From assembly GCA_044238425.1 (NCBI GenBank), contig JBIIDI010000001.1:1-42156 (forward strand): 42,156 nt of DNA, given 5' to 3'. Below are positions 8,065 through 34,227 of this stretch, piece by piece (within the stretch, counting starts at the first letter, position 1; each line of letters begins with the position of its first letter). The notes beneath the pieces are model-generated. The model was not told the DNA's origin and did not search any database. It saw only the letters and a program-made list of their open reading frames with translations. Position numbers and translations under genes: made by a program. This DNA is from Ilumatobacteraceae bacterium (GTDB taxonomy: Bacteria; Actinomycetota; Acidimicrobiia; Acidimicrobiales; Ilumatobacteraceae).

Positions 8065-8140
8065 CTCCGTACCTCCTTTGCGTGAGTTCGTCGCCACGAT
8101 TCCGAGCGCCAGATCCGGTGAATTCGATGCTGGCTTGCAC

Positions 8141-8171
8141 AAGGGCCGCCGGGAAAATCCCGGCGGCCCTT
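8141..8171 (-). terminator. Perfect 13-bp stem / 5-nt loop hairpin between the binding-protein and ATPase genes (intercistronic attenuator or stabiliser)
   Basis: AAGGGCCGCCGGG-aaaat-CCCGGCGGCCCTT. No U-tract follows on the minus strand. The placement after the SBP gene is typical of ABC operons. Confidence 0.45.
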
Positions 8172-8219
8172 GGCAGTGATGTTGCAACGACACCGTGCGG
8201 TGCCGCTAGCCGCGTGGGA

Positions 8220-9413
8220 TCAGCTGAGTCCCCAGCGCTGCTTGAACAGGTCCTGGAATCCTTCGATTCCGGGCCACAGCGCGGTCGGATCCTTCACCGT
8301 GGGTTGCGTGAGGATCTGGCGGGGCAGACCGTTGAGACCGATGTCGGTCTTGTCGAAGATGCCCTCGATGGCCGGCGACTTCGAGATCGTGCCGTCGGTG
8401 AACAGCGTGATCGCGATGTCGACTGCGCGCCAGCCGAGCAGACCCGAGGCGAGTGCGAACTCACCGGTCTGGTGCTTGCCGTCGGCAATGAACTGGAAGT
8501 TCATCGGTGAGCCGGCCTGCGACACGGCCTTCGCCTGGTCGACGAGTCCCGCAGCTTCGAGTGCTTCCGGAACGCCGAACATCATGCCGCCGAATGCGTA
8601 GGCAATGAAGTCGAGGTTCGGGTCGGCCTGGAGAGCCGACACCATCTGGCCGGGCAGGTTCGTTCCGAGGTCGGCGAGGCCGATCTCCTGGAACTTCACC
8701 GTGCACTCGGGGCAAATGAGTTCGATCTCGGCTTTGAAGCCGTCCTGCACGAGTGACAACACGGGGAACACCGGCAGACCGACGAACAGGATGTTCTTGT
8801 TCGGGCTGTTGGCGTACGCGTAGTCGGCCATGACCACTCCGTAATAGAAGTAGTCGTCACCGGACAGGATGTTCACGGCGATGCCTTTGCCCGGTTCGAA
8901 CGGCTCGGGAATTGACCACGAGATGACCGGGATGTTCATCGACTCGAGCGTGTCGAGCTGGGTCTGGAACCATTCGCGCGGGTTGCCGCTCGTCATGACG
9001 ACGTCAGGCTTCGCCGCGATGGCCGCATCGAAGGCCGCCGCGACGGTGTCGGGCGTGTCCTGGTGCGACGTGGTCTTGATCGTCCAGCCCTTCGAGGCCA
9101 GTGCCGCTACTGCCTCTTCGACTCCGGAGCCGATCTCAGCACATACCGGCACGGAGCAGGTGATGTAGAACACGGTCTTGTTTTCCGGAACTGACGTCGG
9201 CGCCGGGCCCAAGTCGAGCTCGGTGACGGGCTGCGAAAGTGCCTCAACGCGCGCGAGCGCGATGTCGGCGGGGCTTTCACCCGTTGCTTCCGCAGTGGTC
9301 TCTTCGGTCGCCACGGTGTCTTCCGTGGCAGTGTCGTCGCTCGAGCCACCACAGGCCGTGACAACCACGAGCCCGAGTGCCGTGAGCGCGGCGACGAGTG
9401 TCTTGCGTTTCAT
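8220..9413 (-). CDS. ABC transporter substrate-binding lipoprotein (type I periplasmic-binding fold, sugar-binding-like)
   Basis: MKRKTLVAALTALGLVVVTAC|GGSS is a lipoprotein signal with a lipobox Cys, followed by an acidic/Thr linker and a PBP-like body. ATG at 9413 has AAGGGGGA upstream. The protein also contains CSVPVC and CPEC motifs. Confidence 0.8.
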   Translation of the reverse strand: MKRKTLVAALTALGLVVVTACGGSSDDTATEDTVATEETTAEATGESPADIALARVEALSQPVTELDLGPAPTSVPENKTVFYITCSVPVCAEIGSGVEEAVAALASKGWTIKTTSHQDTPDTVAAAFDAAIAAKPDVVMTSGNPREWFQTQLDTLESMNIPVISWSIPEPFEPGKGIAVNILSGDDYFYYGVVMADYAYANSPNKNILFVGLPVFPVLSLVQDGFKAEIELICPECTVKFQEIGLADLGTNLPGQMVSALQADPNLDFIAYAFGGMMFGVPEALEAAGLVDQAKAVSQAGSPMNFQFIADGKHQTGEFALASGLLGWRAVDIAITLFTDGTISKSPAIEGIFDKTDIGLNGLPRQILTQPTVKDPTALWPGIEGFQDLFKQRWGLS

Positions 9414-9444
9414 GTGTATGGGTCCCCCTTGTTGCGGTTGTGTA

Positions 9445-9484
9445 ACCGTGGCTTGACCGTACCGTGCCACGGGTCACCGTGCCA
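9445..9484 (-). promoter_or_regulatory. Candidate operator: ACCGTGGC (9445-9452) plus two exact ACCGTGCCA copies (9461-9469 and 9476-9484); inverted pair CCGTGGC/GCCACGG (9446-9452 / 9466-9472)
   Basis: Read directly, 30-70 nt upstream of the SBP start codon in the 147-nt leader/promoter region. Confidence 0.3.
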
Positions 9485-9560
9485 AACTCGAGAACGGACC
9501 GGGACCTTGCCTTCGGACTCCGGCGAGGTGGGTGTCCGAGCCCCGGCTACTGCCTGTTCG

Positions 9561-10121
9561 CTACAGCCACGTGCTGCTCAGCGCGTCACGTCGGGCAGTC
9601 CATTCCTCGCTCGTACACCCGAAACGGTCGTGGTCTTCCCACACGCCGTTGATCTCGAGGAATCCGAGCGCTCGACCCTCGTGGCGAAAGCCCACCTTCT
9701 CCATCACGCGCAAGCTGTTGCGGTTGCGCGGAATGATGCACACCTCGACGCGGTGCAAGCGCAAGTCGTCGAAGGCGAACTTCGTGATGACGACGACGCC
9801 CTCGGCGATGTATCCGTTGCCGGCGCGGTCACGGTCGATCCAGTAACCGATCGTGCCCGATTGCATCGCGCCGCGCATGACGTTGTTCAGGTTCACCTCG
9901 CCGACGAACGCCGAATCGACGAAGACGCCGAAGGAGTACGCATGTCCCCCCGCGCGCTCACGTTCACGGGCCACGCAGCGCTGCCGGAACGCGGTGCGGT
10001 CGAGGGCGGGATCGGAGGTGCCTGCGGGACGTGTCGGTTCCCAGGCGGTCAACCACTCACCGTTGCGGCGTCGCACCTCGCCGTACGCCTCGAAGTCCGA
10101 TTCGGTGAGCGGACGCAGCAT
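9561..10121 (-). CDS. GNAT family N-acetyltransferase (RimJ/RimL-like)
   Basis: MLRPLTESDFEAYGEVRRRN..WL..WEP...GYWIDRDRAGNGYIAEG...LHRVEVCIIPRNRNSLRVMEKVGFRHEG is a RimJ-like pattern. The start is uncertain: ATG 10121 is chosen, with GTG 10175 as an alternative. Confidence 0.8.
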   Translation of the reverse strand: MLRPLTESDFEAYGEVRRRNGEWLTAWEPTRPAGTSDPALDRTAFRQRCVARERERAGGHAYSFGVFVDSAFVGEVNLNNVMRGAMQSGTIGYWIDRDRAGNGYIAEGVVVITKFAFDDLRLHRVEVCIIPRNRNSLRVMEKVGFRHEGRALGFLEINGVWEDHDRFGCTSEEWTARRDALSSTWL

Positions 10122-10198
10122 GATCCGTCGTCCGTACAGACGCGTCGGTGCGTGGGGGTTGCCGGCCGGATGCACGACGCGTCCGCCGTGGCGCGCCG

Positions 10199-11170
10199 TC
10201 ACGGCGACACCTGCGACGCAGTGGACGGACCGTCGTTGCGCATCGCGGCGAGGGCGAGTCCGTCGAGGAGGTTGTGCGTGCTCACGGTGATCTCGGACAG
10301 GTGGAGTCGGCGCATGATCGCGACGAGCAGGCAGCACCCGGCGACGATGACGTCGGCGCGCTCGCGGGGCAGACCGGGATTGTGAATGCGGTCGGCGAGC
10401 TTCTCCGTTGCGAGCGTGCGGAACACGTCCTCGGCGGCGTCCTTCGTCAGCGACATGCCGTGCAGGCGCGTCGCATCGAACGTCGCGAGTCCGAGTTCGA
10501 CGGCGGCGATCGTGACGATCGTTCCCGCGACGCCGACGACATGCGTCGCGGAGCCGATGAGCGGCTGTTCGAGAACCGCATTGTCGACGGCATCCCCGAC
10601 GATCGACACTGCATTCGACAGTTCTTCGGGGCGTGGTGGATCGTGGTGCAGCTCCGATTCCGTGAGCGAGACGACACCGAAGGGCAGGCTCACCGTGCCG
10701 TCGACGTCGCTCGTGCCGACCGTCAGTTCGGTCGATGCGCCACCGATGTCGATGACCATCGTCGGGGCGTTCCCGCCGGGAGCGCCGCGCGCGTCCGTCT
10801 GGCGGTCACGAAGTGCGCCGTGCCACGCCAGCTCGGCCTCCTCGCGTTCGGACAGCAAGCGCGGAGTCGTGCCGACGATGTCGTGGACGCGGGCGAACAA
10901 GTCCTGGGTGTTCGTTGCGATGCGGCACGCAGCCGTGGCGCCGATCGTCGTCGTCGTCACGCCGTGACTGCGGATGAGTTCGGCGTACGTCGCGACCGTG
11001 GTGCACACGCGATCGATTGCCGCCGCACCGAGCACGCCCGTGGCAGAGACACCTTCGCCGAGTCGCGTGACGCGCACCTCGCGGTGAACGTCGACGAGGC
11101 GTCCGTCGCGCACGTCGGCGATGAGCAGGTTGGACGAATTCGACCCGAGGTCGATGGCGGCGATCCGCAT
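10199..11170 (-). CDS. Ppx/GppA family phosphatase (exopolyphosphatase-like)
   Basis: MRIAAIDLGSNSSNLLIAD... is the ASKHA N-terminal motif. ATG at 11170 overlaps the DUF501 stop by 1 nt (TGATG). Confidence 0.88.
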   Translation of the reverse strand: MRIAAIDLGSNSSNLLIADVRDGRLVDVHREVRVTRLGEGVSATGVLGAAAIDRVCTTVATYAELIRSHGVTTTTIGATAACRIATNTQDLFARVHDIVGTTPRLLSEREEAELAWHGALRDRQTDARGAPGGNAPTMVIDIGGASTELTVGTSDVDGTVSLPFGVVSLTESELHHDPPRPEELSNAVSIVGDAVDNAVLEQPLIGSATHVVGVAGTIVTIAAVELGLATFDATRLHGMSLTKDAAEDVFRTLATEKLADRIHNPGLPRERADVIVAGCCLLVAIMRRLHLSEITVSTHNLLDGLALAAMRNDGPSTASQVSP

Positions 11171-11583
11171 CAGCGCGCTTCCCCGAGTTTCACCGCGACC
11201 CACGCACCGACCGGATCGTCGTTACCCGCCAGCCACGCAGCGAAGTGGGCGTGCAGGCACTTCACTCCGCGACGCGTACCGCCCACCCCGCCACTCGGAC
11301 GCGGTCCGGTGTGATCGGTGGGCATCGCGGTGTCACGTTCGTTGGCATATGCCGCGTGGGCGGCAGCGAGCGTTTCGGGATCGATCTCGCGTTCGGCGGC
11401 ATCAACTCCGCCGTCGGCCTCGAGTTGCGAGACGCGTTTTATGTCGCGCGAACCGACGAGCCAGTAACGGGTGGGCATCGGGGTTGCGTCGTCGAGGAGC
11501 GGGGCGTTGCGTACGACACGCGGATCACCCGCGGCGTCGCGCACGATGACGTCGAAGTCGCCGCGCGGGCGACGACCGAGCAA
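11170..11583 (-). CDS. DUF501 domain protein (counterpart of mycobacterial Rv1025)
   Basis: LGRRPRG...TPMPTRYWL...GGVGGTRRGVKCLHAHFAAWLAG resembles DUF501. TTG at 11583 is the only canonical start, but the frame stays open upstream into the coxG stop, so the 5' end is uncertain. Confidence 0.75.
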   Translation of the reverse strand: MLGRRPRGDFDVIVRDAAGDPRVVRNAPLLDDATPMPTRYWLVGSRDIKRVSQLEADGGVDAAEREIDPETLAAAHAAYANERDTAMPTDHTGPRPSGGVGGTRRGVKCLHAHFAAWLAGNDDPVGAWVAVKLGEAR

Positions 11584-11618: not shown

Positions 11619-12488
11619 TCAGAGCAGCAGCACCGCCGCGATGACGACGCCGGCGATGACGATGACGGCGGGCACGAGGCGCTTCACCATCGTCGATCCT
11701 GCCGTCTCCAGGAGGTTGATCGGCTCTGCGGCCGGACCGTCGATTTTGCGGATCGTCGGTGCGGTTTGCGCAGGCGTCGACGGTGTTGCTGTCGACTGTG
11801 TCCCTGTTGTCGGTGTCGCTGTCACCGGTGCAGGGGGTGTCGACGAAACGGCGGCCGACGTCGGTGTTGGCACAGACGACGTAGTCGACACAGACGAAGT
11901 AGTTGGCACAGTGGGTGCAGCGGGTGTCGGTGCAGATGCCGGCGGGGGAGTCGGTGCCGACGCCGGTGCTGCGGACGCGGTTGCCGCGGGAGTTGGTGCC
12001 GCCGCTGGGGTGGCGGTGGTGCCGCTCGATGCTCCGATACCGCCCGAGGCAATGAGCGTGTTGAGGTTGTCGACGAATTGGGCAAGCAGCTTGTCGCTGA
12101 CGTCGGCGAGAGCACCGCGACCGAACTGGGCGACCTTTCCCGAAATCGTGAGGTCGGTGTGCACGTTGCAGCGCGTTGACGTTGCCGACTCCGACGTCAA
12201 CGACGCCGTGATGATGGCCGACGCGTTGCCCTTGCCACCCGTGTCACGACCTTCACCCTTCAACGCCGCCGTGTACGTCGCGTCGTTGCGCTCGATGAAC
12301 GACGCCTGACCCTTGAATTGGGCGACGACCGGGCCGACCTTCACGCCGACGTGACCGCGGTACGTGTCACCCTCGACTTCGGTCAACTGCGCGCCGGGCA
12401 GGCACGGTGCGATGCGCTCGAGGTCGGTGAGAATGCGCCATGCGTCGGCGATCGGCACCGCCACCGTGAATTCGTGTCGCAGGTCCAT
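11619..12488 (-). CDS. SRPBCC / CoxG family protein with a Pro-Thr-Ala-Ser-rich linker and a C-terminal transmembrane anchor
   Basis: MDLRHEFTVAVPIADAWRILTDLERIAPCLPGAQL... is CoxG-like for about 145 aa. A ~100-aa low-complexity linker follows, then LVPAVIVIAGVVIAAVLLL*. GAAGGAG lies upstream of ATG 12488. Confidence 0.85.
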   Translation of the reverse strand: MDLRHEFTVAVPIADAWRILTDLERIAPCLPGAQLTEVEGDTYRGHVGVKVGPVVAQFKGQASFIERNDATYTAALKGEGRDTGGKGNASAIITASLTSESATSTRCNVHTDLTISGKVAQFGRGALADVSDKLLAQFVDNLNTLIASGGIGASSGTTATPAAAPTPAATASAAPASAPTPPPASAPTPAAPTVPTTSSVSTTSSVPTPTSAAVSSTPPAPVTATPTTGTQSTATPSTPAQTAPTIRKIDGPAAEPINLLETAGSTMVKRLVPAVIVIAGVVIAAVLLL

Positions 12489-12530
12489 GGACTACTCCTT
12501 CGATCTGTCTCGTCGATTGCCCGGTCGTCG

Positions 12531-13145
12531 TCACTGCGGAGACGTTCGCCCGCTGATGCGGGTGAGATCGTCCCTCGTGTCGACATCCGTCGGCGTTCCG
12601 CGACAGGCTACTTCGCACACGATTTCGGCTTCCTTACGCAGCAGCTGACGGGCGCCTTCGTCACCGACGACGGGAATGTCGGACCACCAGCGTCGGGCGA
12701 TGCGCACGGGATGACCGCGCTCTCCGTCGTACGTTGCCACGGCGAGTTCGCACGCGCAGTCGGCGAGACGTCGCCACGCGTCCGGATCGATGCGCGGTTG
12801 ATCGGCGAGACCGACGACGACGACGTCCAGCCCCCGCTCGGCCGCGGCGTCGAATCCCGCGTGCAGAGACGTCGCCATCCCGTCTGCCCATTGCGGGTTG
12901 TTCACCACGGAGACCGGCACCCGTGACGCCGCCGGCAGCGCGGCGACGACGCGGCTGACTTCGTCGGAGAAATCGTCGGCGCCGACGACGACGATGACGG
13001 GGCCGATGGCGCTGGCGAGGACGCTCTCCAGTGCGTGCGCGAATACGCTCGAGCCGTCGAGTGAGGCGCGCAGCTTGTGTCCCGGGCCGGCGAATCTCCG
13101 CCCGGCGCCGGCGGCGAGGAGCACGGCACACACCTCTGTGGTCAT
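12531..13145 (-). CDS. MobA/MocA-like nucleotidyltransferase (molybdenum cofactor cytidylyl/guanylyl-transferase family)
   Basis: The N-terminal AVLLAAGAGRRF loop is typical of NTP_transf_3 proteins. The start is ATG 13145 or GTG 13151. Confidence 0.75.
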   Translation of the reverse strand: MTTEVCAVLLAAGAGRRFAGPGHKLRASLDGSSVFAHALESVLASAIGPVIVVVGADDFSDEVSRVVAALPAASRVPVSVVNNPQWADGMATSLHAGFDAAAERGLDVVVVGLADQPRIDPDAWRRLADCACELAVATYDGERGHPVRIARRWWSDIPVVGDEGARQLLRKEAEIVCEVACRGTPTDVDTRDDLTRISGRTSPQ

Positions 13146-13215
13146 CGCCACAGCCTGCCAGACCCCTATGAAATCGCGACCTGACGGGGATCGGGCGGAA
13201 TAGGGAGGCCCAAAT

Positions 13216-13254
13216 ATGACGAAATGATGACGAAAGTCCCGTAGGCTGTCATCA
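13216..13254 (+). promoter_or_regulatory. Repeat/inverted-repeat element in the leader of the NlpC/P60 gene
   Basis: ATGACGAAA occurs twice with an 11-nt period (13216-13224 and 13227-13235). An inverted repeat TGATGAC (13225-13231) / GTCATCA (13248-13254) sits in the only AT-rich patch of the divergent intergenic region. Confidence 0.3.
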
Positions 13255-13318
13255 CATCGTTATCCAGACCGTCCCGGTGACGGCCATCCCGATCTCGCCC
13301 CACCCGCCCGGAGGACCG

Positions 13319-14017
13319 ATGCCCACCAACTCGAGCTGCCACCGCCACAACCCCGCGCAACGAACATGCGTTCGCCATCGCCTCGTTCTCGTCGCTGCCG
13401 TCGTGCTCGGCAGCATCGCCGGTCTCGTCGCGGTGCGCCCGGGCGAGGCGCGGGCGGTTGCAATCCCCGAGCATTCAACGGAGTGGATCGCGCGCATGGC
13501 GTTCGACATCACGACCGAACTGCGTCGCGCGGGTGACGTGCCCCGCGCCGAACTGCGTGACGTGGCCGCACGCGCCATTTCCGAGACCGCGAGCCTCGTC
13601 GCGTACCACCTCGACGCCGATCCCGTGTCGTTGCGTCGCGCTTGGCTCGATGCGCCGTTGGAACGCAGGATCGCGGTGTTCTCCGCCCTCAGCCAACTCG
13701 GTGTGCCGTACGAACTGAACGGTGACGCACCGTTCGTCGGTCTCGACTGTTCGGCGCTGACGAAGTACGCATGGGGCCAGGCGGGTGTCGACCTCGATCG
13801 CGCGAGTGCGTCGCAGTACGCACGCGGACGGCGCATCGGCGTCGATCGTCTCCGCGCCGGCGACCTCGTGTGGTATCCGGGTCACATCATGATGTCGCTC
13901 GGGGTGCCCGAGCTCATCGTGCACGCCCGATCCGGCGCGCGAACGGTGGAAATCCATCGCATCGCCGACGAACGTCTCGACTGGATGCGCTGGATCGATC
14001 CGACGACGCGATCCTGA
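13319..14017 (+). CDS. NlpC/P60 family cell-wall peptidase with N-terminal signal/anchor
   Basis: GLDCSALTKYAWGQAG...GDLVWYPGHIMMSLG...IVHA is an NlpC/P60 Cys-His-His arrangement, preceded by the hydrophobic segment LVLVAAVVLGSIAGLVAV. ATG at 13319 follows GGAGGA; GTG 13277 is an alternative start. Confidence 0.8.
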   Translation: MPTNSSCHRHNPAQRTCVRHRLVLVAAVVLGSIAGLVAVRPGEARAVAIPEHSTEWIARMAFDITTELRRAGDVPRAELRDVAARAISETASLVAYHLDADPVSLRRAWLDAPLERRIAVFSALSQLGVPYELNGDAPFVGLDCSALTKYAWGQAGVDLDRASASQYARGRRIGVDRLRAGDLVWYPGHIMMSLGVPELIVHARSGARTVEIHRIADERLDWMRWIDPTTRS

Positions 14018-14031
14018 CGCGCAACGCGTCA
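14015..14031. terminator. 17-bp palindrome TGACGCG-caa-CGCGTCA containing the stop codons of both convergent genes
   Basis: The plus-strand TGA (14015-14017) and minus-strand TGA (14029-14031) form the outer base pairs of a 7-bp stem. Confidence 0.3.
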
Positions 14032-14832
14032 GTGAATCGGCCCGCTCGTCGCCGACAGCGGCCGCGCGGAACGACCCGAACGCGCGGCAACGATTTCCGC
14101 GCAGATGGAAATCGCCGTTTCTTCCGGCGTACGGGCGCCGATGTCGAGCCCGATCGGTGAGTGCAGACGGGAAATCTCCGCGTCGCTGGTCCCCACTTCG
14201 CGCAGCCGTTCGAGCCGCTTGTCATGCGTGCGGCGGCTGCCCATGACGCCGATGTAGCCGACGTTGCCGGCGAGCGCGCCGCGGATCGCGGGGACGTCGA
14301 ACTTCGGGTCGTGGGTGAGTACGCACACCGCGTCGCGCGAACCGAGATCGCCGCCGACCCGGTCGAACAACTCGTTCGGCCAGGCGACGACGAGTTCGTC
14401 GGCCATCGGAAATCGTTTCGGGGTGGCGAACACCTTGCGCGCGTCGCACACGGTGACGTGGTAGCCGAGCACTTTCGCGACGCGCGCGAGAGCGGCGGTG
14501 AAGTCGACGGCACCGAAAATGATCATCCGCGGCGGCGGGGCGAACGATTCGATGAACACGCGCACGACGGTCTCACCGACGAGGTCTGCGGGGGTCGTCT
14601 CGCCGCGCGGCCCGTAACTGCGCACGCCGTTGCGCCCGGCGTCGAGTTCACCGAGTGCGTCGCGGGTCGCGACGCGGTCGAGTTCGACGTTGCCGAGCGA
14701 ACCCTGCGTCGAGCCGTCTCCCGTGACGAGCAGCGATGCCCCGCACCGTTCGCCGTCGAGCACGGTGAGAAGGGCGACCGGTCTGCGGTCGCGGACGGCG
14801 CTCGCGAGCGCGGAAACGTGGTCGTCGCTCAC
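14029..14832 (-). CDS. XdhC/CoxF-like Mo-enzyme maturation protein (XdhC_CoxI plus Rossmann-like domain)
   Basis: RPVALLTVLDGERCGASLLV..., RMIIFGAVDFTAALARVAKVLGYHVTVCDAR and IGLDIGARTPEETAISICAEI match the family pattern. The start is GTG at 14832. Confidence 0.85.
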   Translation of the reverse strand: MSDDHVSALASAVRDRRPVALLTVLDGERCGASLLVTGDGSTQGSLGNVELDRVATRDALGELDAGRNGVRSYGPRGETTPADLVGETVVRVFIESFAPPPRMIIFGAVDFTAALARVAKVLGYHVTVCDARKVFATPKRFPMADELVVAWPNELFDRVGGDLGSRDAVCVLTHDPKFDVPAIRGALAGNVGYIGVMGSRRTHDKRLERLREVGTSDAEISRLHSPIGLDIGARTPEETAISICAEIVAARSGRSARPLSATSGPIH

Positions 14833-14839
14833 CGTTTGC

Positions 14840-15157
14840 TCACCACGTGTAGCGCTGCATGAAGAGGTGGATCGTGCCGCCGCACGTGAGGCCGACGGCG
14901 AATGCCTCGTCGTCGCTGTAGCCGAAGCTGATGAGTTCGGGTGGGGAATCGTTGCGCAGCATCTCCATGGCGCGCTCGACGACGGCCCCCTCGACGCAAC
15001 CGCCGCTCACCGATCCGACGACGTCACCGTCGACGGTGACCGCCATGGCGGCCCCGGGAAGGCGTGGTCCGGACCCTTCGATGTCGACGACGCGGGCGAC
15101 GACGCACGCGGTGCCGCTCTCGCGCCAGCGTTCGAGTTCGTCGAGGATTTCGCGCAT
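14840..15157 (-). CDS. Stand-alone XdhC_CoxI N-terminal-domain protein
   Basis: MREILDELERWRESGTACVVARVVDIEGSGPRLPGAAMAV...GSVSGGCVEGAV, 105 aa. ATG at 15157 overlaps the VWA stop by 1 nt. Confidence 0.8.
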   Translation of the reverse strand: MREILDELERWRESGTACVVARVVDIEGSGPRLPGAAMAVTVDGDVVGSVSGGCVEGAVVERAMEMLRNDSPPELISFGYSDDEAFAVGLTCGGTIHLFMQRYTW

Positions 15158-16266
15158 CAGGACTCCGCCGACATGACCATAGCGAGGCGTTCGAGCGCAT
15201 CAACCGAGTGGCCCTCGACGAACGCGTCGACGTGCGGCAGTGCGGCGGCCATTCCGCGCGCGAGAGGTGCGTATCCGGGTCCGGCCTTCAACGGGTTCAC
15301 CCACACGACCCGGTGTGCAACGCGACCGAGGCGTTGCATCTGCTCGGCGAGCACGTTCGGGTCGCCGCGATCCCACCCGTCGGAGAGGATGACGACGATT
15401 GCGCCGCGGGCCATTCCGCGCACTCCCCACCGGTCGTTGAACTGGCGCAGCGTCTCCCCGAGTCGCGTACCGCCGCTCCAGTCCTCGACGCGCCCCGATG
15501 CGCGGTTGAGGGCCCGATCGGGATCGCGGCTCGACAACTCGCGGGTGACGCGCGTGAGACGCGTGCCGAGCGTGAAGGTCTCGACGCGTTGACGCCCGAC
15601 GACGGCCGAGTGCATGAACTGCAGCAGTGCCCGCGCGTACGGCTCCATCGAACCCGAAATGTCGAGCAGCACGACGAGTCGGCGCAGGCGTTGTGCCGGC
15701 TTCCTGTGCAGTCGGCGCACCGGTTCGCCGTGGTGTCGCAGGGTCGCGCGCACCGTGCGGCGCACGTCGGTGTGGCGCGTGCGACCCGACGCGCGTTCGA
15801 GTCGCAGCGCCCGTCGCGGCGGTCCGGCGAAGCGCAACCGCGACATCAAGCGGCGCGAATCCCGCAATTCGTCCGCCGTGTACTCGGCGAAGTCCTTGCG
15901 GCGCAGCGTTTCGAGTGCGGAGAAGCGCAGCGTCGTCTGTTCGCGGTCGCTGCGTCGCGAGCCGTTGCCGTCGGAGTCGTCGTCGAGGTCGACGGCAAGC
16001 GTTTGCGGGCGTTGCACCGGCGCGTTGCGATCGTCAAGGGCGCGGTGGTCGCCCTCCCAGAACGCGCGGAACGCCTTGTCGTAGAGGTCGAGATCCTCCG
16101 GTCTGCGCACGAGCGATCCGCGTCCGGCCCAGTACACGGCATCGCGTTCGGTCACGCCGACGACGCCGAGGCACTGCACGAACGTGAGGATCGAATCGAG
16201 GGGCACGGCGATTCCGGCGCCGCGCAGCACGCGCCCGAAGGCGACGGCCATGTTTTCCGGTGTCAC
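15157..16266 (-). CDS. VWA domain protein (CoxE-like)
   Basis: The MIDAS motif VVLLDISGSM is present, with a CoxE-like N-terminus AFGRVLRGAGIAV. The start is GTG 16266, or ATG 16251 as an alternative. Confidence 0.85.
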   Translation of the reverse strand: MTPENMAVAFGRVLRGAGIAVPLDSILTFVQCLGVVGVTERDAVYWAGRGSLVRRPEDLDLYDKAFRAFWEGDHRALDDRNAPVQRPQTLAVDLDDDSDGNGSRRSDREQTTLRFSALETLRRKDFAEYTADELRDSRRLMSRLRFAGPPRRALRLERASGRTRHTDVRRTVRATLRHHGEPVRRLHRKPAQRLRRLVVLLDISGSMEPYARALLQFMHSAVVGRQRVETFTLGTRLTRVTRELSSRDPDRALNRASGRVEDWSGGTRLGETLRQFNDRWGVRGMARGAIVVILSDGWDRGDPNVLAEQMQRLGRVAHRVVWVNPLKAGPGYAPLARGMAAALPHVDAFVEGHSVDALERLAMVMSAES

Positions 16267-16330
16267 GCGTCGTTCCCGATCACGATGCCCGACACGTCAT
16301 CCGGACATCGGCCTCGCGCCGCGCCGGACG

Positions 16331-17260
16331 TCACGAGGCCGACAGCGCGCGTCCGATCGCGTGACGCACGAGGTCGTCGACTCCGGCGTCGCGTACGCGC
16401 TGGTGGTCCTCGCGATACTTCAGCACCGCACCCAAGGTGGCGTCCACGACCGACTCGTCGATCTTTGCCACGCCGAGCGCAGCCAACGACGTTGCCCAGT
16501 CGATCGTCTCGGCGATGCCCGGTGGTTTGTACAGGTTCATGTCGCGCAGTCGCTCGACGACGGCGGCGACCTGGCGGGCAAGATCGACCGTCGCGCCGGG
16601 GCAGCGCAGTCGCACGATCTCGACCTCGCGTTCGAAACTCGGATGTTCGACCCAGTGGTACAGGCAGCGCCGCTTCAGTGCGTCGTGCACATCGCGCGTG
16701 CGGTTCGACGTGAGCACCACGAGCGGCGGCTCGGAGGCGCGGAAGGTTCCCACCTCGGGCACGGTGATCTGGAAGTCGGAGAGAACCTCGAGCAGGTACG
16801 CCTCGAATTCGTCGTCGGCGCGGTCGATTTCATCGATGAGCAGCACGGGGGGCACCGCGTTGTTCGGGTCGATCGCGCGCAACAGGGCGCGACGGATGAG
16901 GAAACGCTCGCCGTACAGCTCGTTCTCGAGTGCGTCGCTGCCCTTCGTCGTTGCTTCTCCGGTGGCTTCGGCGGTGCGCAGGTGGAGGAGCTGGCGCGAG
17001 TAGTCCCAGTCGTACACCGCTTGCGCGGCGTCGATGCCTTCGTAGCACTGCAGGCGTATGAGCTCGGCACCGCGCACTCGCGCGAGAACCTTCGCCAACT
17101 CGGTCTTGCCGACACCGGCTTCACCCTCGAGAAAGAGGGGACGCTTCAACGTCAATGAGAGGAACACGGCCGTGGCGAGACCGTCGTCGCTGAGGTAGCC
17201 CTCGGCGGAGAGTGCACTGCGAACGTCGGCAACGCTCGACAAGTTCGCGAGGGGCGGCAC
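16331..17260 (-). CDS. MoxR-family AAA+ ATPase (CoxD-like)
   Basis: Walker A is LEGEAGVGKTE and Walker B is VLLIDEIDRAD. The start is GTG at 17260. Confidence 0.88.
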   Translation of the reverse strand: MPPLANLSSVADVRSALSAEGYLSDDGLATAVFLSLTLKRPLFLEGEAGVGKTELAKVLARVRGAELIRLQCYEGIDAAQAVYDWDYSRQLLHLRTAEATGEATTKGSDALENELYGERFLIRRALLRAIDPNNAVPPVLLIDEIDRADDEFEAYLLEVLSDFQITVPEVGTFRASEPPLVVLTSNRTRDVHDALKRRCLYHWVEHPSFEREVEIVRLRCPGATVDLARQVAAVVERLRDMNLYKPPGIAETIDWATSLAALGVAKIDESVVDATLGAVLKYREDHQRVRDAGVDDLVRHAIGRALSAS

Positions 17261-17326: not shown

Positions 17327-18076
17327 GTGATGGATCTGGGCATTGCCGGTCGCACCGCCGCCGTTGCCGCAGGCACCGCCGGTCTCGGTTTTGCGAGTGC
17401 GGCTGCGTTGTGCGAAGCGGGCGTGCAGGTCGTCATCTGCGGTCGTGATCGTGCGCGTGTCGACGACGCCGTGTCGCGACTCGGCAAGAACGCGCGCGGA
17501 GTCGTTGCCGACGTCGCCACCGCGGCCGGAGCGACGGCGTTCGTTGCGCAGGCGGGCGAGTTGCTCGGGCGCATCGACATCCTCGTTGCCAACGGCGGCG
17601 GCCCGAAGCCGGGCACCTTCTCGTCGCTGTCGGTCGACGACTACCTGCCCGCCGTCGAGCAGAGTCTGCTCGCCACGGTTGCGATGTGCCATGCGGCAGT
17701 TCCGTCGATGCGCGAACGCAGATGGGGTCGAGTCGTTGCCATCACGTCGATCGCGGTGCGTCAGCCGATCGCCAACCTCATGTTGTCGAACACCGCGCGC
17801 GCCGGGCTCACCGGGTTCCTGAAGACGCTCGCTCGTGAAGTCGCCGTTGACGGCGTCACCGTCAACTCGGTGCAACCGGGTGTGCATGCAACGGACCGCA
17901 TCACGCAGGTGTACGGCGCGCAACCCGATGCCTCCGCGCTCGGCATTCCCGCCGGGGTCATCGGTGATCCGGCCGACTTCGGGCGCATCGTCGCCTTCCT
18001 GTGCAGCGAGTCGTCGCGGTTCGTCACCGGAGTGCACCTGCCGGTTGACGGCGGCGCGTACGCCGGTTTGCTGTAG
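17327..18076 (+). CDS. Short-chain dehydrogenase/reductase family protein with a non-canonical catalytic motif
   Basis: AAVAAGTAGLGFA is a variant TGxxxGxG, and ILVANGG and ITSIA are present. LSNTARAG sits where YxxxK is expected. TACCCT at 17316-17321 lies 5 nt before GTG 17327, which fits a leaderless mRNA; ATG 17330 is an alternative start. Confidence 0.75.
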   Translation: MMDLGIAGRTAAVAAGTAGLGFASAAALCEAGVQVVICGRDRARVDDAVSRLGKNARGVVADVATAAGATAFVAQAGELLGRIDILVANGGGPKPGTFSSLSVDDYLPAVEQSLLATVAMCHAAVPSMRERRWGRVVAITSIAVRQPIANLMLSNTARAGLTGFLKTLAREVAVDGVTVNSVQPGVHATDRITQVYGAQPDASALGIPAGVIGDPADFGRIVAFLCSESSRFVTGVHLPVDGGAYAGLL

Positions 18077-18078
18077 TT

Positions 18079-18100
18079 CGTCGCCCCGTCGTCGGCGACG
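18079..18100. terminator. Hairpin (CGTCGCC / GGCGACG, 8-nt loop) filling the 24-nt gap between convergent genes
   Basis: Read directly between TAG 18074-18076 (plus strand) and TGA 18101-18103 (minus strand). Confidence 0.3.
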
Positions 18101-18925
18101 TCAGTTCTGCATCTTGCGCAGGCCGCGCAGGGCGAACGTGATCGTCAGGGCCGACATGACGACGACCGCGACGAGACCGCCCCACACCGAACCCCACGAC
18201 AGCGCGTCGGGTGATGCCGGATCGACGAGACCGGTGCGCGCGAGGCGCAGGACGTTCGTCGCCGGGTTGAGCCGAGCGACCGAGTGCAGCCACCCGCTCA
18301 TCACCTGCAGCGGAACCTGTGCGGTGGAGAGGAACATGACGACGAAGATCGACAGCTGCATGATCGCCGCGGCGCGCATGTCGCGGAAGCGGTAGGCGAG
18401 ACCGAGACCCCAGCCCGCACCGGCCGTCGCGATGCCCATCGCCGCGACGTACAGGCACAACACACCGAGGATCCCGCCGGGGAACCGCGCACCGAGTGCG
18501 ACGCCGAGCACGATGACGAGCGTGCACATGAGGATGACGCGCACGAGCGAACCGAGGATCGGGCCCATGACGAGCGACAGTCGCGAGGTCGGTGACATCC
18601 GCAGGCGGTCGTAGAAGCCGGTCTGGATGTCGCGAATGGTCGTGAAGCCGAGTCCGACGCCGGCGAACGCCGAGCCCATCATGATGCCGAGCGGCATGTA
18701 CCAATTGATCGACCGGTCGGTGGGGAATCCGGGTAGTTGCGTGATCGCGTAGAACGTGCCGGAGAAGGCGATCATGTTGAACACCGGCATTGCGAGCGCC
18801 GGAAAGAATGCCGACGGCAGGCGGCGGATCGTGCGGATGCTGCGCAGTGCGAGCATGCGTGCACTGCGCACGGTACGCGAACGAAGTTGGCCGACGGAAT
18901 CCGACGACGGAGCGATGACGGTCAT
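18101..18925 (-). CDS. ABC-2 type transporter permease
   Basis: A multi-TM protein with the N-terminal LRSIRTIRRLPSAFFPALAMPVF pattern typical of ABC-2/DrrB-like permeases. ATG at 18925 overlaps the upstream stop (ATGA). Confidence 0.8.
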   Translation of the reverse strand: MTVIAPSSDSVGQLRSRTVRSARMLALRSIRTIRRLPSAFFPALAMPVFNMIAFSGTFYAITQLPGFPTDRSINWYMPLGIMMGSAFAGVGLGFTTIRDIQTGFYDRLRMSPTSRLSLVMGPILGSLVRVILMCTLVIVLGVALGARFPGGILGVLCLYVAAMGIATAGAGWGLGLAYRFRDMRAAAIMQLSIFVVMFLSTAQVPLQVMSGWLHSVARLNPATNVLRLARTGLVDPASPDALSWGSVWGGLVAVVVMSALTITFALRGLRKMQN

Positions 18926-19719
18926 GAGCGCGCAATCCTGCGCCGAAGTTGATCGAGCGACACGAGCGTTGCACCGACTCCGATGAGCGCCGGGATGGCG
19001 AGCGAGCGCACGAGCGCACCGGCCGACATCCCGTCGATGATGAGTGCGCGCAAGCCCTCCACCATGTGCGACACCGGGTTGACGTCGGCAATGCGACGGT
19101 AGACACCGGTCATCGTCTCGCGGGGGAAGAACGCGCTCGACAGGAAGAGAAGGATGAACAGCAGCGGAAATGCGCCTTGCACCGCTTCGGCCGATCCGGT
19201 GCGCAACGCAACGCCGGACATCAGCGCACCGACGGCGAACGAGATGAGCAGACTGCCGAGGATGATCGCCAGGTAACCGGCGACTCCCGCGCTCACGCGC
19301 ACGCCGAACGGTGTGAGCACGGCGACGAACACGGTTGCCTGCACCGCACCGAACAGCGATGCTCCTGCAAGGCGACCGAAGAGGATCGCCGTACGTGACG
19401 TCGGCGCGACGAGCAGACGGTCGAAGAATCCGTCGCCGATGTCGGTGGCGAGCGCGGCCGCTCCGGTCACCGAACCGAAGAGCACGCCCTGGATGACGGT
19501 GCCGGCGAGCGAGTACTGCAGGTACGAGTCGACGACGGGGAAGCCGGGTAGCGACGTCGCCCGACTGAACGCCGACGCACCGAGGGCGGCGAAGAACAGA
19601 GGGAAGATGAGCGACGGCCCGATGAGCGCCGGCTGGCGCAGCATCGCCATCGTCGAGCGGCGGGAGAGCGCGACGAGATGTCGCGCCGACTCAGCGGGCC
19701 TTCGGCGCATTGTCCGCAC
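18922..19719 (-). CDS. ABC-2 type transporter permease (paralogue)
   Basis: LSRRSTMAMLRQPALIGPSLIFPLFF... is multi-TM. The start is GTG 19719 or ATG 19710, overlapping the ATPase 3' end by 20-29 nt. Confidence 0.78.
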   Translation of the reverse strand: MRTMRRRPAESARHLVALSRRSTMAMLRQPALIGPSLIFPLFFAALGASAFSRATSLPGFPVVDSYLQYSLAGTVIQGVLFGSVTGAAALATDIGDGFFDRLLVAPTSRTAILFGRLAGASLFGAVQATVFVAVLTPFGVRVSAGVAGYLAIILGSLLISFAVGALMSGVALRTGSAEAVQGAFPLLFILLFLSSAFFPRETMTGVYRRIADVNPVSHMVEGLRALIIDGMSAGALVRSLAIPALIGVGATLVSLDQLRRRIARS

Positions 19720-20650
19720 CTTCCAGCCGGTAGCCGGTCGCCTCGGCGAAGACGTCGTCGAGGCTCGGTTCGTTGAGGGCGAGGTGCTGCACCTTCACGC
19801 CCGCTTCGTCGAGGCGGCGAATGACCTCGGCGACGCGGCCGGCACCGCCGCGCAAACCGACGCCGAGCGTTCCCTCCGCGGTCGGGCGCAAGTCACCGAA
19901 TTCACGCAACACTGCGCTTGCCGTGGCGAGTTGGTCGCGGGCGACGTCGACGAGCAGCGTCGGATCACCGACGCCCTGCTTCAGGGTCGAGGGAGTTCCC
20001 TCGCGCACGATCTTGCCGTGGTCGATGATCGCGACCCTGTCGGCGAGCTGGTCGGCTTCTTCGAGGTACTGCGTCGTCAACATCACCGTCGTGCCCTCCG
20101 CGTTGAGGCGGCGCACTTCCTCCCACAGCGTGAGGCGGCTCATCGGATCGAGTCCGGTCGTCGGCTCGTCGAGGAACAGCACGACGGGGCGGTGGATGAG
20201 CGACAGCGCGAGATCGAGTCGTCGCCGCATGCCGCCCGAATACGTCGCGACGCGGCGGTTCGCCGCCGCGGTGAGCCCGACGCGTTCGAGCAGTTCGTCG
20301 GCGCGCTTCTTCGTCGAGTTCCGCGGCAGGCCGTACAGCACCGCTTGCAGCGCGAGCAACTCGGCGCCGGTCATCAACGGATCGATCGCTGCGTCCTGCA
20401 GTGCGACACCGATGCTGCGTCGCACGTCGTCGGCCTGCGTGACGACGTCGTAGCCCGCGACTCGTGCGCTTCCCGACGTGGGGCGAAGGAGAGTCGTGAG
20501 CATGCGCACCGCCGTGCTCTTGCCGGCCCCGTTCGGACCGAGGAAGCCGAAGATCTCACCTTCCTTCACGGTGAGGTCGATGCCGTCGACGGCCTTCACG
20601 TCTCCGAAGTGCCGGGTGAGTCCTTCGGCAATGATGGGTGCGTTGTTCAC
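19691..20650 (-). CDS. ABC transporter ATP-binding protein (DrrA/CcmA-like, exporter type)
   Basis: GPNGAGKST, YSGGMRRRL and VLFLDEPTTGLD are present. GTG at 20650 overlaps the coxL-like stop (GTGA). Confidence 0.9.
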   Translation of the reverse strand: MNNAPIIAEGLTRHFGDVKAVDGIDLTVKEGEIFGFLGPNGAGKSTAVRMLTTLLRPTSGSARVAGYDVVTQADDVRRSIGVALQDAAIDPLMTGAELLALQAVLYGLPRNSTKKRADELLERVGLTAAANRRVATYSGGMRRRLDLALSLIHRPVVLFLDEPTTGLDPMSRLTLWEEVRRLNAEGTTVMLTTQYLEEADQLADRVAIIDHGKIVREGTPSTLKQGVGDPTLLVDVARDQLATASAVLREFGDLRPTAEGTLGVGLRGGAGRVAEVIRRLDEAGVKVQHLALNEPSLDDVFAEATGYRLEGADNAPKAR

Positions 20651-22935
20651 GCCTCTGGTCTAGTGGCTGCGATTGCTTTCCAGATGCGTTCCGGCGTCAG
20701 GGGCATGTCGATGTGACGCACGCCCACGTGCGACAACGCGTCAATGACGGCCGACTGCACGGCCGGTGTCGAACCGATCGTGCCCGATTCGCCGATTCCC
20801 TTTGCGCCGAGCGGATTGCGCGGCGTCGGCGTTTCCATCGGCACCGTCGTGATGCGGGGCATCTCACTCGCGGTGATGAATGCATAGTCGACCAGGTTCG
20901 TCGTCTTCGGCGTGCCGTCGGCGTCGTAGATGACCTCCTCGAGCAATGCCTGCGCAGTTCCCTGCGCGATCCCGCCGTGCACCTGGCCGGTGAGCAACAG
21001 CGGATTGATGATCGTTCCCGCGTCGTCGCAGGCGAAGTGCCGGCGATGGTGCACGGCACCGGTGCGCGTGTTCACCTCGACGACGGCGACGTGTGCTCCG
21101 AACGGGAACGTCGGGCCACCCGACGTGAATCGCCGTTCGCACTCGATTCCGTGCGACGCATCGACGCTGCGCGCGACGTCCGCCCACCCGACTTTCACCG
21201 ACGGAGTTCCGCGCACGTGGAACATGCCCGACACCGGGTCGCACACGACGTCGTCGACGTCCGCTTCGAGCAGTCGCGCGGCATGTTCGCGCGCGAGATC
21301 GACGAGACGGTCGGCGGTGTGCTGCACGGCAGAACCGCCGAGTTGCAGCGAACGCGAACCGTACGTACCGAGCCCTTCCGCAACCACGTCGGTGTCTCCC
21401 CACACGAGCGAGATCCGATCGATCGGGATTCCGGTGCGTTCGCTCGCGATCATCGCCCATGCGGTGTGGTGACCCTGGCCGTGCGGTGAGGTGCCGGTGG
21501 CGATCGTCGCACTGCCGTCGGGGTGCACCGTGATGCGCGCGTCCTCGTGGGTGGTGCCGCCGCTCGTGATCTCGACGTACACGCTCACGCCGATACCGAG
21601 CTGCATGTCGTCGCCACGTTCGCGGCGCTCACGCTGCTCGCGACGCAACTCGTCGTAGTTTGCCGCGGCGAGCACTCGATCGAGGGCACCGGCGTAGTCG
21701 CCGACGTCGTATTCGACGCCGATCGCCGTACGGTGCGGTTCGCGGAACGGGGCGATGAGGTTGCGTCGGCGCACGTCGACGGGATCCATGCCGAGTTCGC
21801 GGGCGACGAGATCCATTGCACGTTCAACGGCCGCCGTCGCCTCGGGTCGTCCCGCACCGCGGTACGCGACGATGGGCGTCGTGTTCGTGAGCACCGACCG
21901 CACGCGGGCCTCGATGCGCGGAATGGCGTAGACCCCGGACGACATGTTGCGCGTGCCGCGCGCGAGAACCGTGCCGATGTCGGCGAACGCACCGCAGTCC
22001 TGCACGATGTCGAGGCGGTAGGCGAGGATGCGACCGTCACGCCGCGCGCCGATGGTGACGTCCTGAATCTGCGCCCGACCGTGACCGAGGGCGAGCATCG
22101 ACTCGGTGCGCGACTCGCGCCAGGTGACGGGTGCTCCGACGACGCGCGCGATTGCACCGAGTGCGAGTTCCTCGGGGTATGCGGTGATCTTCGATCCGAA
22201 CCCGCCGCCGACGTCGGGAGTGACGACGTGAACGGCCGAGGCATCGACGCAGTGGATCGATGCGAGCTGATCGCGCACTCCGTGCGCGTGCTGGGTGGAA
22301 ATCCACTGGTGCAACCGCCCGCGATGCCATGCAGCGGCGGAACCGCGCACCTCGAGCGGGCACGGTGCGACGCGCTGGTTGACGAACCGGCCGCGCACGA
22401 CGACGTCGCAGTCGGCGAAGAACTCGTCGCCGGTGAAGCCCGGCAGACCCGCGGCCACCGACCCGTACGCGACGTTGCTGTCGAGCTCGGGATACAGGAG
22501 CGTGTCGGAGTCGAGTGCGGCGAGCGGATCGACGACGGCAGGCAGCGGATCGATGTCGAGCTCGACGGCGTCGACGGCATCGGCGACGAGGGCGGGGGCC
22601 GTACCGACGACGACCGCCACGGGTTCGCCGACGTAGCGCACGCGGTCGTCGGCGAGCACCGAGCGGCTGACGAGCCGATTGAAGTTCGACACTTCACGGG
22701 GTAACCCGAGGTCGCCGGCGACGAGCACGGCGACGATGCCGGGCATCGATCGGGCCCGCGACGTGTCGACCGATCGGATCGTTCCGTGGGGGAGCGGCGA
22801 GCGGACGAATGCGACGTGCAGTGCACCCGCGAGAAGCGGTTCGTCGCCGAGTTCGTCGACGTGACGCGCACCGCCGACGAGCAGGCGACGATCCTCGAGT
22901 CGAACGACGCGAGTTCCCAGGATGCTCGTGCCCAC
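20647..22935 (-). CDS. Second molybdopterin-binding large subunit, form-II CoxL-like, with no adjacent FeS/FAD subunits
   Basis: 762 aa. Motifs include RVVRLEDRRLLVG, the active-site loop [12 protein letters not shown] and GAKGIGESG. The start is GTG at 22935. Confidence 0.88.
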   Translation of the reverse strand: MGTSILGTRVVRLEDRRLLVGGARHVDELGDEPLLAGALHVAFVRSPLPHGTIRSVDTSRARSMPGIVAVLVAGDLGLPREVSNFNRLVSRSVLADDRVRYVGEPVAVVVGTAPALVADAVDAVELDIDPLPAVVDPLAALDSDTLLYPELDSNVAYGSVAAGLPGFTGDEFFADCDVVVRGRFVNQRVAPCPLEVRGSAAAWHRGRLHQWISTQHAHGVRDQLASIHCVDASAVHVVTPDVGGGFGSKITAYPEELALGAIARVVGAPVTWRESRTESMLALGHGRAQIQDVTIGARRDGRILAYRLDIVQDCGAFADIGTVLARGTRNMSSGVYAIPRIEARVRSVLTNTTPIVAYRGAGRPEATAAVERAMDLVARELGMDPVDVRRRNLIAPFREPHRTAIGVEYDVGDYAGALDRVLAAANYDELRREQRERRERGDDMQLGIGVSVYVEITSGGTTHEDARITVHPDGSATIATGTSPHGQGHHTAWAMIASERTGIPIDRISLVWGDTDVVAEGLGTYGSRSLQLGGSAVQHTADRLVDLAREHAARLLEADVDDVVCDPVSGMFHVRGTPSVKVGWADVARSVDASHGIECERRFTSGGPTFPFGAHVAVVEVNTRTGAVHHRRHFACDDAGTIINPLLLTGQVHGGIAQGTAQALLEEVIYDADGTPKTTNLVDYAFITASEMPRITTVPMETPTPRNPLGAKGIGESGTIGSTPAVQSAVIDALSHVGVRHIDMPLTPERIWKAIAATRPEA

Positions 22936-22982: not shown

Positions 22983-23408
22983 TCAGGGTTGCAACGGATC
23001 GAAGCCGTCGATGTCGCCGGCTTCGACGCGGGCAAACGCGTCACGACGCACGTCGAGGATTCCCGCAACGAGGGTGTGCGGCCACCGATCCGGCAGCGTG
23101 ATCGGTGCATCGGGTTGCGCAAGCAGCGGAACCCGCCGTTCGTTGGGGAGGAGGTACCCGAGCTGCGAACGGATGGCCTGCTGCAAGCCCGTCGGCGTTT
23201 GCAGCGAGTCGACTTCGTCCTGCAGGGCGTCGTTGATGTCCTCGAACAATGCGTACTGGGCCTCACGCTCGCCGAGCAGGTCGCGCTGGGAGAACCACGT
23301 GCGCAGCGGCAACACGAGCAGCGTGAGGAGAATCGCCACGAGGCCCGCGGCGATGAGCGGCACGCTCCACCGCCGCGCCCGCGCCACCACGTTTCCGACG
23401 AAGCTCAC
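22983..23408 (-). CDS. Septum formation initiator (FtsB/DivIC-like) family protein, counterpart of Rv1024
   Basis: A single N-terminal TM (VPLIAAGLVAILLTLLVLPL) is followed by a short coiled-coil-like segment. It sits directly downstream of eno, as in other actinobacteria. The start is GTG at 23408. Confidence 0.6.
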   Translation of the reverse strand: MSFVGNVVARARRWSVPLIAAGLVAILLTLLVLPLRTWFSQRDLLGEREAQYALFEDINDALQDEVDSLQTPTGLQQAIRSQLGYLLPNERRVPLLAQPDAPITLPDRWPHTLVAGILDVRRDAFARVEAGDIDGFDPLQP

Positions 23409-34216: not shown

Positions 34217-34227
34217 GCGTCGTTGCA

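Follow-up and report, generated by a model that had tools for sequence, protein, structure and literature searches.

A seemingly orphan form-II CoxL-like gene next to an ABC-2 transporter cassette in Ilumatobacteraceae looks like the outcome of a partner-gene deletion

We analyzed a 42,156-nt stretch of DNA, hereafter the window, from an Ilumatobacteraceae bacterium (GCA_044238425.1, contig JBIIDI010000001.1, forward strand, positions 1-42,156), with a focus on L2, a gene for a form-II CoxL-like molybdopterin-binding large subunit (20647-22935, minus strand, GTG start, 762 aa) that leads into an ABC-2 transporter cassette and has no gene for an iron-sulfur (FeS, S) or flavin adenine dinucleotide (FAD, M) subunit beside it. 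When set against the orthologous loci of relatives, the "orphan" look of L2 looks like the result of a partner-gene deletion in a small lineage of freshwater Acidimicrobiia. Judged by its sequence, L2 encodes the catalytic large subunit, intact and under selection, of a form-II CoxL-like molybdenum (Mo) hydroxylase, and it heads a cox-type row whose maturation and anchoring genes lie ~1-9 kb downstream, between ftsB and DUF501-ppx. Nothing at the locus calls for new biochemistry. The enzyme family itself is ordinary; what appears to be undescribed is the gene order, in which an ABC-2 cassette separates a large subunit from its S-M partners inside a known kind of cluster.

Structurally, L2 is the first of four minus-strand genes, followed by a DrrA-type ABC ATPase (19691-20650, 319 aa; TIGR01188, Pfam ABC_tran and DrrA1-3_C), ABC-2 permease 1 (18922-19719, 262-265 aa; Pfam ABC2_membrane, 89 bits) and ABC-2 permease 2 (18101-18925, 274 aa; Pfam ABC2_membrane, 58.9 bits). 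The TGA stop of L2 and the GTG start of the ATPase overlap as GTGA (20647-20650), the start of permease 2 overlaps permease 1 as ATGA, and both start candidates of permease 1 (GTG at 19719, ATG at 19710) overlap the end of the ATPase gene, with the ATG being more likely because the permease 1 called in relatives has 262 aa and a 20-nt overlap. These overlaps had been described in the first-pass annotation of the window and were borne out, as was the 762-aa form-II large subunit lacking an adjacent FeS or FAD gene, on which open reading frames (ORFs), Pfam, the AYRGAGR loop and tblastn agree. The same annotation took the L2 stop/start overlap as translational coupling of enzyme and exporter. 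The overlap is real and kept in the window's clade, where it recurs in four further species-level genomes (L001, L008, L009 and L024; such three-digit numbers denote compared loci, apart from the protein L804 introduced below), but among the loci compared it is restricted to that clade, and elsewhere L2 and drrA are separated by 2-86 bp or by ~550 bp with an intervening opposite-strand ORF. The GTGA overlap is a clade-specific compaction and no evidence for a dedicated enzyme-exporter machine.

L2 orthologues are abundant in assemblies of Ilumatobacteraceae and other Acidimicrobiia, and their contexts were compared in three sets, namely five L2 and L1 homologues (L1 being the large subunit of a second module in the window), 80 species-representative loci found with L2, and 80 loci from metagenomes retrieved by similarity to the DrrA-like protein; reading frames of relatives were labelled by BLASTP against the window proteins, and the poorly resolved L085 and L087 were left out. 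The window's clade (five genomes with the window, L2 87-94% identical; its assemblies include GCA_049433365.1 (JBMTET01), JBIIUH01, CAZIME01 and ERZ27247375) has the window's arrangement throughout, with no S/M gene. To judge by an isolate name (ME2004-08-06), one close relative stems from a lake time series. Relatives that carry S/M (L2 49-67% identity, DrrA 70-83%) come in several forms. In L003, L005-7, L090, L092 and L026, L2 and three ABC-2 genes are followed by S, L804, M, a short-chain dehydrogenase/reductase (SDR) gene, coxD and coxE, where L804 is a second large-subunit paralogue of 804 aa set in S-L-M order. Directly after the three ABC-2 genes, L010, L025, L081, L095 and L102 have S and then M with no second large subunit, and L2 is the sole large subunit beside the S-M pair in the fetched stretch; the L102 version is 49% identical to L2 and heads the order L-ABC2-S-M-coxDE-xdhC. 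The same order of ABC-2, S and M is seen in L094, whose contig begins inside drrA and places the L2 position beyond its end. Two unrelated genes separate L2 and ABC-2 from S (and M where the contig reaches) in L013, L014, L016, L018 and L021; the opposite-strand ORF between L2 and drrA belongs to L014, L018 and L021 and, by its CxxCH (read in L014), looks like a putative cytochrome c, and L016 has no more than 66 bp between L2 and drrA.

Other relatives lack one of the parts. ABC-2 genes are missing in L022 (S directly after L2), in L019 (L2, with S-M several kb off), in L015, and in the fetched stretch of L020 (L2 and S...M, the latter two far enough apart to accommodate a large-subunit gene). 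Six loci, L099-L101 and L103-L105, have ABC-2 genes directly after ftsB with no space for L2, and S follows where the contig reaches; L101 (S-M-coxD-coxE) thereby shows an S-M pair without a large-subunit gene on its 8.5-kb contig, and the 5.6-kb contig L106 has ABC-2 genes and ppx but lacks any cox gene. Together, the loci form a natural series (L2-ABC2-S-M, L2-ABC2-S-L804-M, L2-S, ABC2-S-M without L2, and L2-ABC2 without S-M). As a separate observation, an Ilumatobacteraceae paralogue group ~53% identical to L2 (L033-L048, L051, L083 and others) is also without nearby S/M, and has SDR and importer-type ABC genes alongside where the flanks are long enough.

Evolutionarily, a simple neighbor-joining tree of L2-like proteins (without support values) places the window's clade as sister to all other L2 at the eno-ftsB site, with L026 branching just outside and L-S-M operons forming the next groups out. 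Since these outgroups keep S-M, the S/M-less state would be derived, and the simplest reading of the sequences puts S-M downstream of ABC-2 in the ancestor, with S-(L804)-M lost by deletion in the window's clade. The predicted scar is a junction of 24 bp (18077-18100) between the permease 2 stop and the convergent SDR stop, a site at which relatives carry 1.3-4 kb holding S-M or S-L804-M; a 7-bp GC hairpin is predicted there (z-score -1.8, not significant). The ancestral order would have run L2, DrrA-like ATPase, two ABC-2 permeases, S, (L804), M and SDR (opposite strand), continuing with coxD, coxE, xdhC, mocA and coxG, as an old Acidimicrobiia row set between ftsB and ppx. The deletion would then have removed S-(L804)-M cleanly, from the permease 2 stop to the SDR stop, leaving L2 seemingly orphan. 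The first-pass annotation had called L2 an orphan and had named orthologues normally flanked by S/M genes as the contrary finding; this is largely what we see, as orthologues normally have S-M or S-L804-M downstream on the same strand, in most cases straight after ABC-2, and the S/M-less arrangement is confined to one narrow clade and derived. The word "orphan" holds insofar as no S/M gene adjoins L2 in this genome, but fails insofar as L2 heads a row with coxD, coxE, xdhC, mocA and coxG, whose homologues at 11619-17260 had been overlooked. More broadly, the comparison suggests that shifts in gene order, and not a new type of enzyme, usually lie behind "orphan" large-subunit genes, and that large subunits may have S/M partners in common or exchange them. 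In practice, orthologous loci should be consulted before an orphan large-subunit gene is taken as a sign of new biochemistry.

At the protein level, L2 has the Pfam domains Ald_Xan_dh_C, MoCoBD_1 and MoCoBD_2 (66, 244 and 259 bits, all above cut-off) and aligns over its full length to solved CoxL chains, its best matches among solved structures (8uem, 469 bits; 1ffu, 458 bits; 1n5w, 431 bits). Its motifs are AYRGAGR (aa 357-363), GAKGIGESG (aa 710-718), STQ and GGGFGSK; the cofactor and catalytic motifs conserved in the family (STQ, GGGFGxK, GxGQG and the catalytic Glu in GxGE) are all present and line up with those of 8uem and 1ffu. The form-I active-site loop AYxCSFR is not present, and with AYRGAGR in its place there is thus no Cys for copper; this loop, together with a score under the cut-off of the form-I CoxL equivalog (TIGR02416, 534 vs 991 bits), rules out L2 as a form-I CO dehydrogenase. 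L2 bears the form-II signature AYRGAGR but departs from the form-II coxS-coxL-coxM gene order, being upstream of S-M in relatives and without S-M here. Its best NCBIfam model is glyceraldehyde dehydrogenase alpha (NF041018, 643.5 vs a cut-off of 790 bits, not passed), as is also the case, again under cut-off, for L1 and L804; the three proteins are pairwise ~41% identical, and all have AYRGAGR. The cofactor of L2 is probably of the molybdopterin cytosine dinucleotide (MCD) type. Environmental genomes are very rich in form-II CoxL-like genes, which are often counted as CO dehydrogenases by mistake.

L2 is clearly maintained under purifying selection. All five species-level genomes of the S/M-less clade have it full-length and intact, with a ratio of nonsynonymous to synonymous substitution rates (dN/dS) of 0.085-0.107 at dS 0.35-0.83, next to 0.02-0.12 for the ABC-2 genes and 0.02-0.08 for coxD and coxE. 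A decaying remnant after the loss of the partner genes would fit the somewhat lower conservation of L2 within the clade (87-94% identity vs 92-98% for drrA, coxD and coxE), but an open frame kept in all five genomes, a dN/dS of ~0.1 at dS up to 0.83 and the retention of all catalytic motifs make this highly improbable, and a pseudogene is effectively refuted by the dN/dS values.

Which subunits, then, would serve L2? The window holds a single S/M pair by tblastn with S and M proteins, S1 (2317-2790, minus strand) and M1 (1511-2317, minus strand), each identified by tblastn, Pfam and ORF reading. S1 starts 17.9 kb downstream of L2, no S/M gene lies less than 17 kb from L2, and the pair forms a tightly overlapping operon with its own large subunit, L1-S1-M1, just as the first-pass annotation had it (18 kb off). 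Its description of L1-S1-M1 as an importer-coupled paralogue also stands, as the importer-linked module (1511-9470, minus strand: binding protein, double ATPase, permease and L1-S1-M1) is conserved in relatives (L088, L089, L170). In L170, another genome of the clade, S1/M1 hold the same relative position as in the window, and relatives with 76% L1 identity keep the module at a different genomic site, preceded by coxG. We considered and rejected the idea that L1-S1-M1 is a relocated S-L804-M: L1, L2 and L804 are only ~41% identical, S1 and M1 are 65% and 54% identical to their counterparts as opposed to 65-83% for true row orthologues, and L1-S-M and its importer are conserved as a module of their own. 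Genomes that share only 87% identity in L2 reach 98% in L1, and a recent transfer of L1 is ruled out by a dS of 0.65 with a dN/dS of 0.023; this identity therefore reflects an unusually strong constraint (dN/dS ~0.02 for L1 and S1) instead.

As is established for the family, [2Fe-2S] centres occur, on a separate subunit or within a domain, in every solved member that matches L2, and in the fetched stretches of several relatives L2 is the sole large subunit beside S-M; for these reasons, L2 most likely forms an L-S-M enzyme and would use S/M encoded in trans in this genome. Its [2Fe-2S] S and FAD M subunits would come from S1/M1 or from a pair elsewhere in the genome, which are equally possible; the products of the retained coxD, coxE, xdhC and mocA would mature it, and electrons would reach the membrane through the anchored CoxG. 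In 17 of the 36 L2-like loci whose flanks reach 8 kb or more in each direction, those flanks hold no S/M gene, and the use of S/M in trans would thus be the norm in the group.

The alternative that L2 works without S/M, by another electron route (e.g., directly to a redox protein) or outside redox chemistry, for instance as a holder or sensor of the molybdenum cofactor, would account for the absence of S/M genes within 17 kb of L2, and for a dN/dS 4-5 times that of L1 (0.1 vs 0.023), which could reflect altered constraint after partner loss. However, the solved members that match L2 all carry [2Fe-2S] centres, the catalytic motifs are unchanged, gene content at the locus is all that sets the closest S/M-bearing relatives apart, and orphan large-subunit genes are common in the group, which favors routine sharing in trans over new chemistry. 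We therefore regard S/M-free function as improbable. Taken as a whole, the explanation that we favor, and hold to be somewhat better than an even bet, is that of an old row that underwent deletion of S-(L804)-M, with an L2 that uses S/M in trans and an exporter that is an ancestral, co-directional and probably co-transcribed neighbor whose functional tie to the enzyme, if any, is optional.

Several observations weigh against this explanation. The sole S/M candidates in the window, S1 and M1, belong to a tightly overlapping operon that has a large subunit of its own, L1, and they reach just 65% and 54% identity to the S and M found with L2 in other genomes. The tree behind the direction of change is a simple one that lacks support values. 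As for co-transcription, a promoter scan returned no promoter-like site, and terminator-like sites occurred at chance rate. Finally, over L2 identities of 49-67% and DrrA identities of 70-83%, the ABC-2 genes keep their place between L2 and S-M, sharing their strand and separated by short gaps, and L026 carries the block away from the eno-ftsB site; both the conserved order and the L026 block resemble a functional operon, which keeps a real link between enzyme and exporter credible.

Functionally, such a link would make L2 and ABC-2 a two-step module, in which the hydroxylase oxidizes a cytoplasmic aldehyde or heterocycle and a DrrAB-like pump clears the product, or else the toxic substrate, from the cell, with the pump genes having come to lie inside the operon through selection for co-expression. 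The one-strand order of L2, ABC-2 and S-M with short gaps over 49-94% L2 identity, the movement of L2-ABC2-S-L804-M as a block in L026, the L2/ATPase overlap in the window's clade, and the strong purifying selection on the ABC-2 genes (dN/dS 0.02-0.12) all fit this reading, as would a second lineage, L165, with an ABC-2 pair inside a coxDE-xdhC-S-L-M row. Yet all combinations of loss are seen (L2 without ABC-2; ABC-2 and S-M without L2; and, on the short L106 contig, ABC-2 without a cox gene), the whole mfd-to-ppx region is syntenic, so that adjacency can be inherited without shared function, and cox genes are absent from the fetched flanks (up to 6 kb, with many short contigs) of DrrA homologues that are 50-65% identical and come from soil and other sources. 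Literature searches on orphan large subunits, and on Mo-hydroxylase clusters that contain ABC-2 genes, yielded nothing pertinent, and such coupling, or an ABC-2 cassette placed between a large subunit and S-M, did not turn up in them. On balance, the two-step module strikes us as unlikely, if still a serious contender. The L2/ABC-2 neighborhood on which the first-pass annotation built is indeed conserved from 49% to 94% L2 identity, but L2, ABC-2 and S-M have each been lost independently, and the dedicated hydroxylase-exporter module proposed there is therefore possible only. We lean, by a modest degree, towards the exporter as an inherited and possibly co-transcribed neighbor without an obligatory role in the enzyme.

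The L165 locus (5935-10665, on a Nocardioidaceae-like contig) reads coxD, coxE, xdhC, ABC ATPase, ABC-2 permease, S-L-M. It was rejected as an independent ABC-2/cox association, as the pair, at 77-80% identity, has unrelated neighbors in three other genomes (Jiangella, a Streptosporangiaceae genome and one other); not being conserved in its own family, it gives no support for coupling. In Jiangella (L171), the pair adjoins a sulfite-oxidase-type Mo enzyme, and neither context is conserved. More speculatively, the ABC-2 cassette could be a working part of the Mo-hydroxylase system in Acidimicrobiia, coupling cytoplasmic hydroxylation or oxidation by L2-S-M to ATP-driven efflux of product or toxic substrate, with L2 and L804 interchangeable on a shared S-M scaffold, which we consider rather doubtful; such interchangeability, if true, would explain the separate losses and the many large-subunit genes without adjacent S/M. 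By a tentative analogy of the same doubtful standing, coupled oxidation and efflux might be likened to a bacterial "phase I / phase III" detoxification operon. A functional exporter link, if there is one, would connect efflux with a Mo hydroxylase.

The transporter would be, by its ATPase, of the DrrAB-like ABC-2 exporter type. The ATPase passes the NCBIfam drrA subfamily model (TIGR01188, 357.8 vs 312.45 bits) and resembles Rv1218c and ABCA-type nucleotide-binding domains; the two permeases, ~28% identical to each other, fail the drrB subfamily model (TIGR01247, 77 and 52.7 vs 223 bits). Permease 1 has several hydrophobic segments in a hydropathy scan, and a search of solved structures with both permeases gave marginal ABCG matches or none. 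The cassette thus comprises two ABC2_membrane proteins and no solute-binding-protein gene, the nearest such gene (8220-9470) being part of the L1 importer. It shares with the DrrAB(C)/Rv1217c-Rv1218c exporters of Actinobacteria the drrA-type ATPase and the lack of a binding-protein gene, and DrrB and DrrC of Mycobacterium tuberculosis are likewise two different ABC-2 permeases. It differs from these exporters in its permeases, which are far under the drrB cut-off, in its lack of an antibiotic or lipid biosynthesis context, and in its position within a Mo-hydroxylase row. An ABC-2 efflux-type system that NCBIfam does tie to a dehydrogenase is the pyrroloquinoline quinone (PQQ)-alcohol-dehydrogenase ABC-2 system (PedC type; TIGR03864, TIGR03861), to which the window cassette has weak matches that do not pass the cut-offs (190 vs 302 and 52.5 vs 241); the enzyme in those systems is periplasmic and of a different class from L2.

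Among enzymes, CO dehydrogenase CoxSML (Mycobacterium smegmatis 8uem, Oligotropha carboxidovorans 1n5w, Hydrogenophaga pseudoflava 1ffu) has the same three-domain large-subunit architecture as L2, and the window offers the matching AAA+ CoxD, VWA CoxE, XdhC-like factor and membrane-anchored CoxG. The window differs in that its order is not coxMSL, S/M are not at the locus, an ABC-2 cassette is inserted, and the L2 loop AYRGAGR has no copper Cys (TIGR02416 534 vs 991). Form-II coxSLM "putative CoxL" clusters (xanthine dehydrogenase family) share AYRGAGR with L2 and the S-L-M order with the L804 of relatives; in contrast to them, the L2 of relatives precedes S-M with three transporter genes between, and S-M is deleted in the window's clade. 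The archaeal glyceraldehyde dehydrogenase/oxidoreductase models (NF041018-NF041020) rank top in NCBIfam for L2, S1 and M1, and a Sulfolobus tokodaii chain (4zoh) matches L2 at 408 bits; all three window proteins nevertheless score under the equivalog cut-offs (790, 290 and 350), and hence no substrate is transferable from this family.

Turning to the surroundings, the minus-strand order upstream of L2 is glmU, prs, L25, pth, mfd, PPIase (peptidyl-prolyl isomerase), mazG, eno and ftsB, and the mazG-eno-ftsB synteny is kept in relatives. The FtsB/DivIC-like gene (22983-23408, minus strand; weak Pfam DivIC match) ends 47 bp before L2 and is the upstream edge of the insertion in the housekeeping block; no terminator-like site is predicted in the ftsB-L2 interval. 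After the permeases comes the plus-strand SDR oxidoreductase (17327-18076; Pfam adh_short_C2), convergent with the ABC-2 genes, conserved in the cluster, and located between M and coxD in relatives. The row continues on the minus strand with a CoxD-like AAA+ (MoxR-type) ATPase (16331-17260; Pfam AAA_5 and AAA), syntenic in all relatives, a CoxE-like VWA protein (15157-16266; Pfam VWA_CoxE, E-value 1.4e-59), a lone XdhC/CoxI N-terminal domain of 105 aa (14840-15157; Pfam XdhC_CoxI, E-value 2.1e-24) and an XdhC/CoxF-like maturation factor (14029-14832; Pfam XdhC_C and XdhC_CoxI). The best NCBIfam matches of the CoxD-like and CoxE-like proteins (15157-17260) are MadB AAA ATPase and MadC VWA, both under cut-off, and the split of XdhC into two genes, the 105-aa N-domain and then a full-length XdhC, is kept in all relatives examined.

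Next in the row is an NlpC/P60 cell-wall hydrolase gene (13277-14017, plus strand; profile match), whose opposite-strand position inside the cox accessory row is kept in the window's clade and L010. It is followed by a MobA-like NTP transferase (12531-13151, minus strand; Pfam NTP_transf_3), which is probably a MocA molybdenum cofactor cytidylyltransferase, with a score under the NCBIfam MocA cut-off (TIGR03310, 85.7 vs 186 bits), and by CoxG (11619-12488, minus strand; Pfam COXG). CoxG has a C-terminal transmembrane anchor, a single hydrophobic helix (aa 264-289) preceded by a ~110-aa linker rich in Pro, Thr and Ala. This architecture fits the CoxG known from Mycobacterium smegmatis, which PMC12202499 describes as a membrane-bound, menaquinone-binding partner that passes electrons to the respiratory chain. 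Beyond coxG lie a likely DUF501 frame (11170-11583, assigned by position only, as relatives have DUF501 there), ppx, a GNAT gene and the sugar-type ABC importer with L1-S1-M1. An Rfam scan of the window for regulatory RNA returned tRNA only, namely one gene at 34146-34216 (minus strand, 57.8 bits) within the 5' extension of the glmU-like frame (33034-34236), and the true glmU start must therefore lie downstream of the tRNA.

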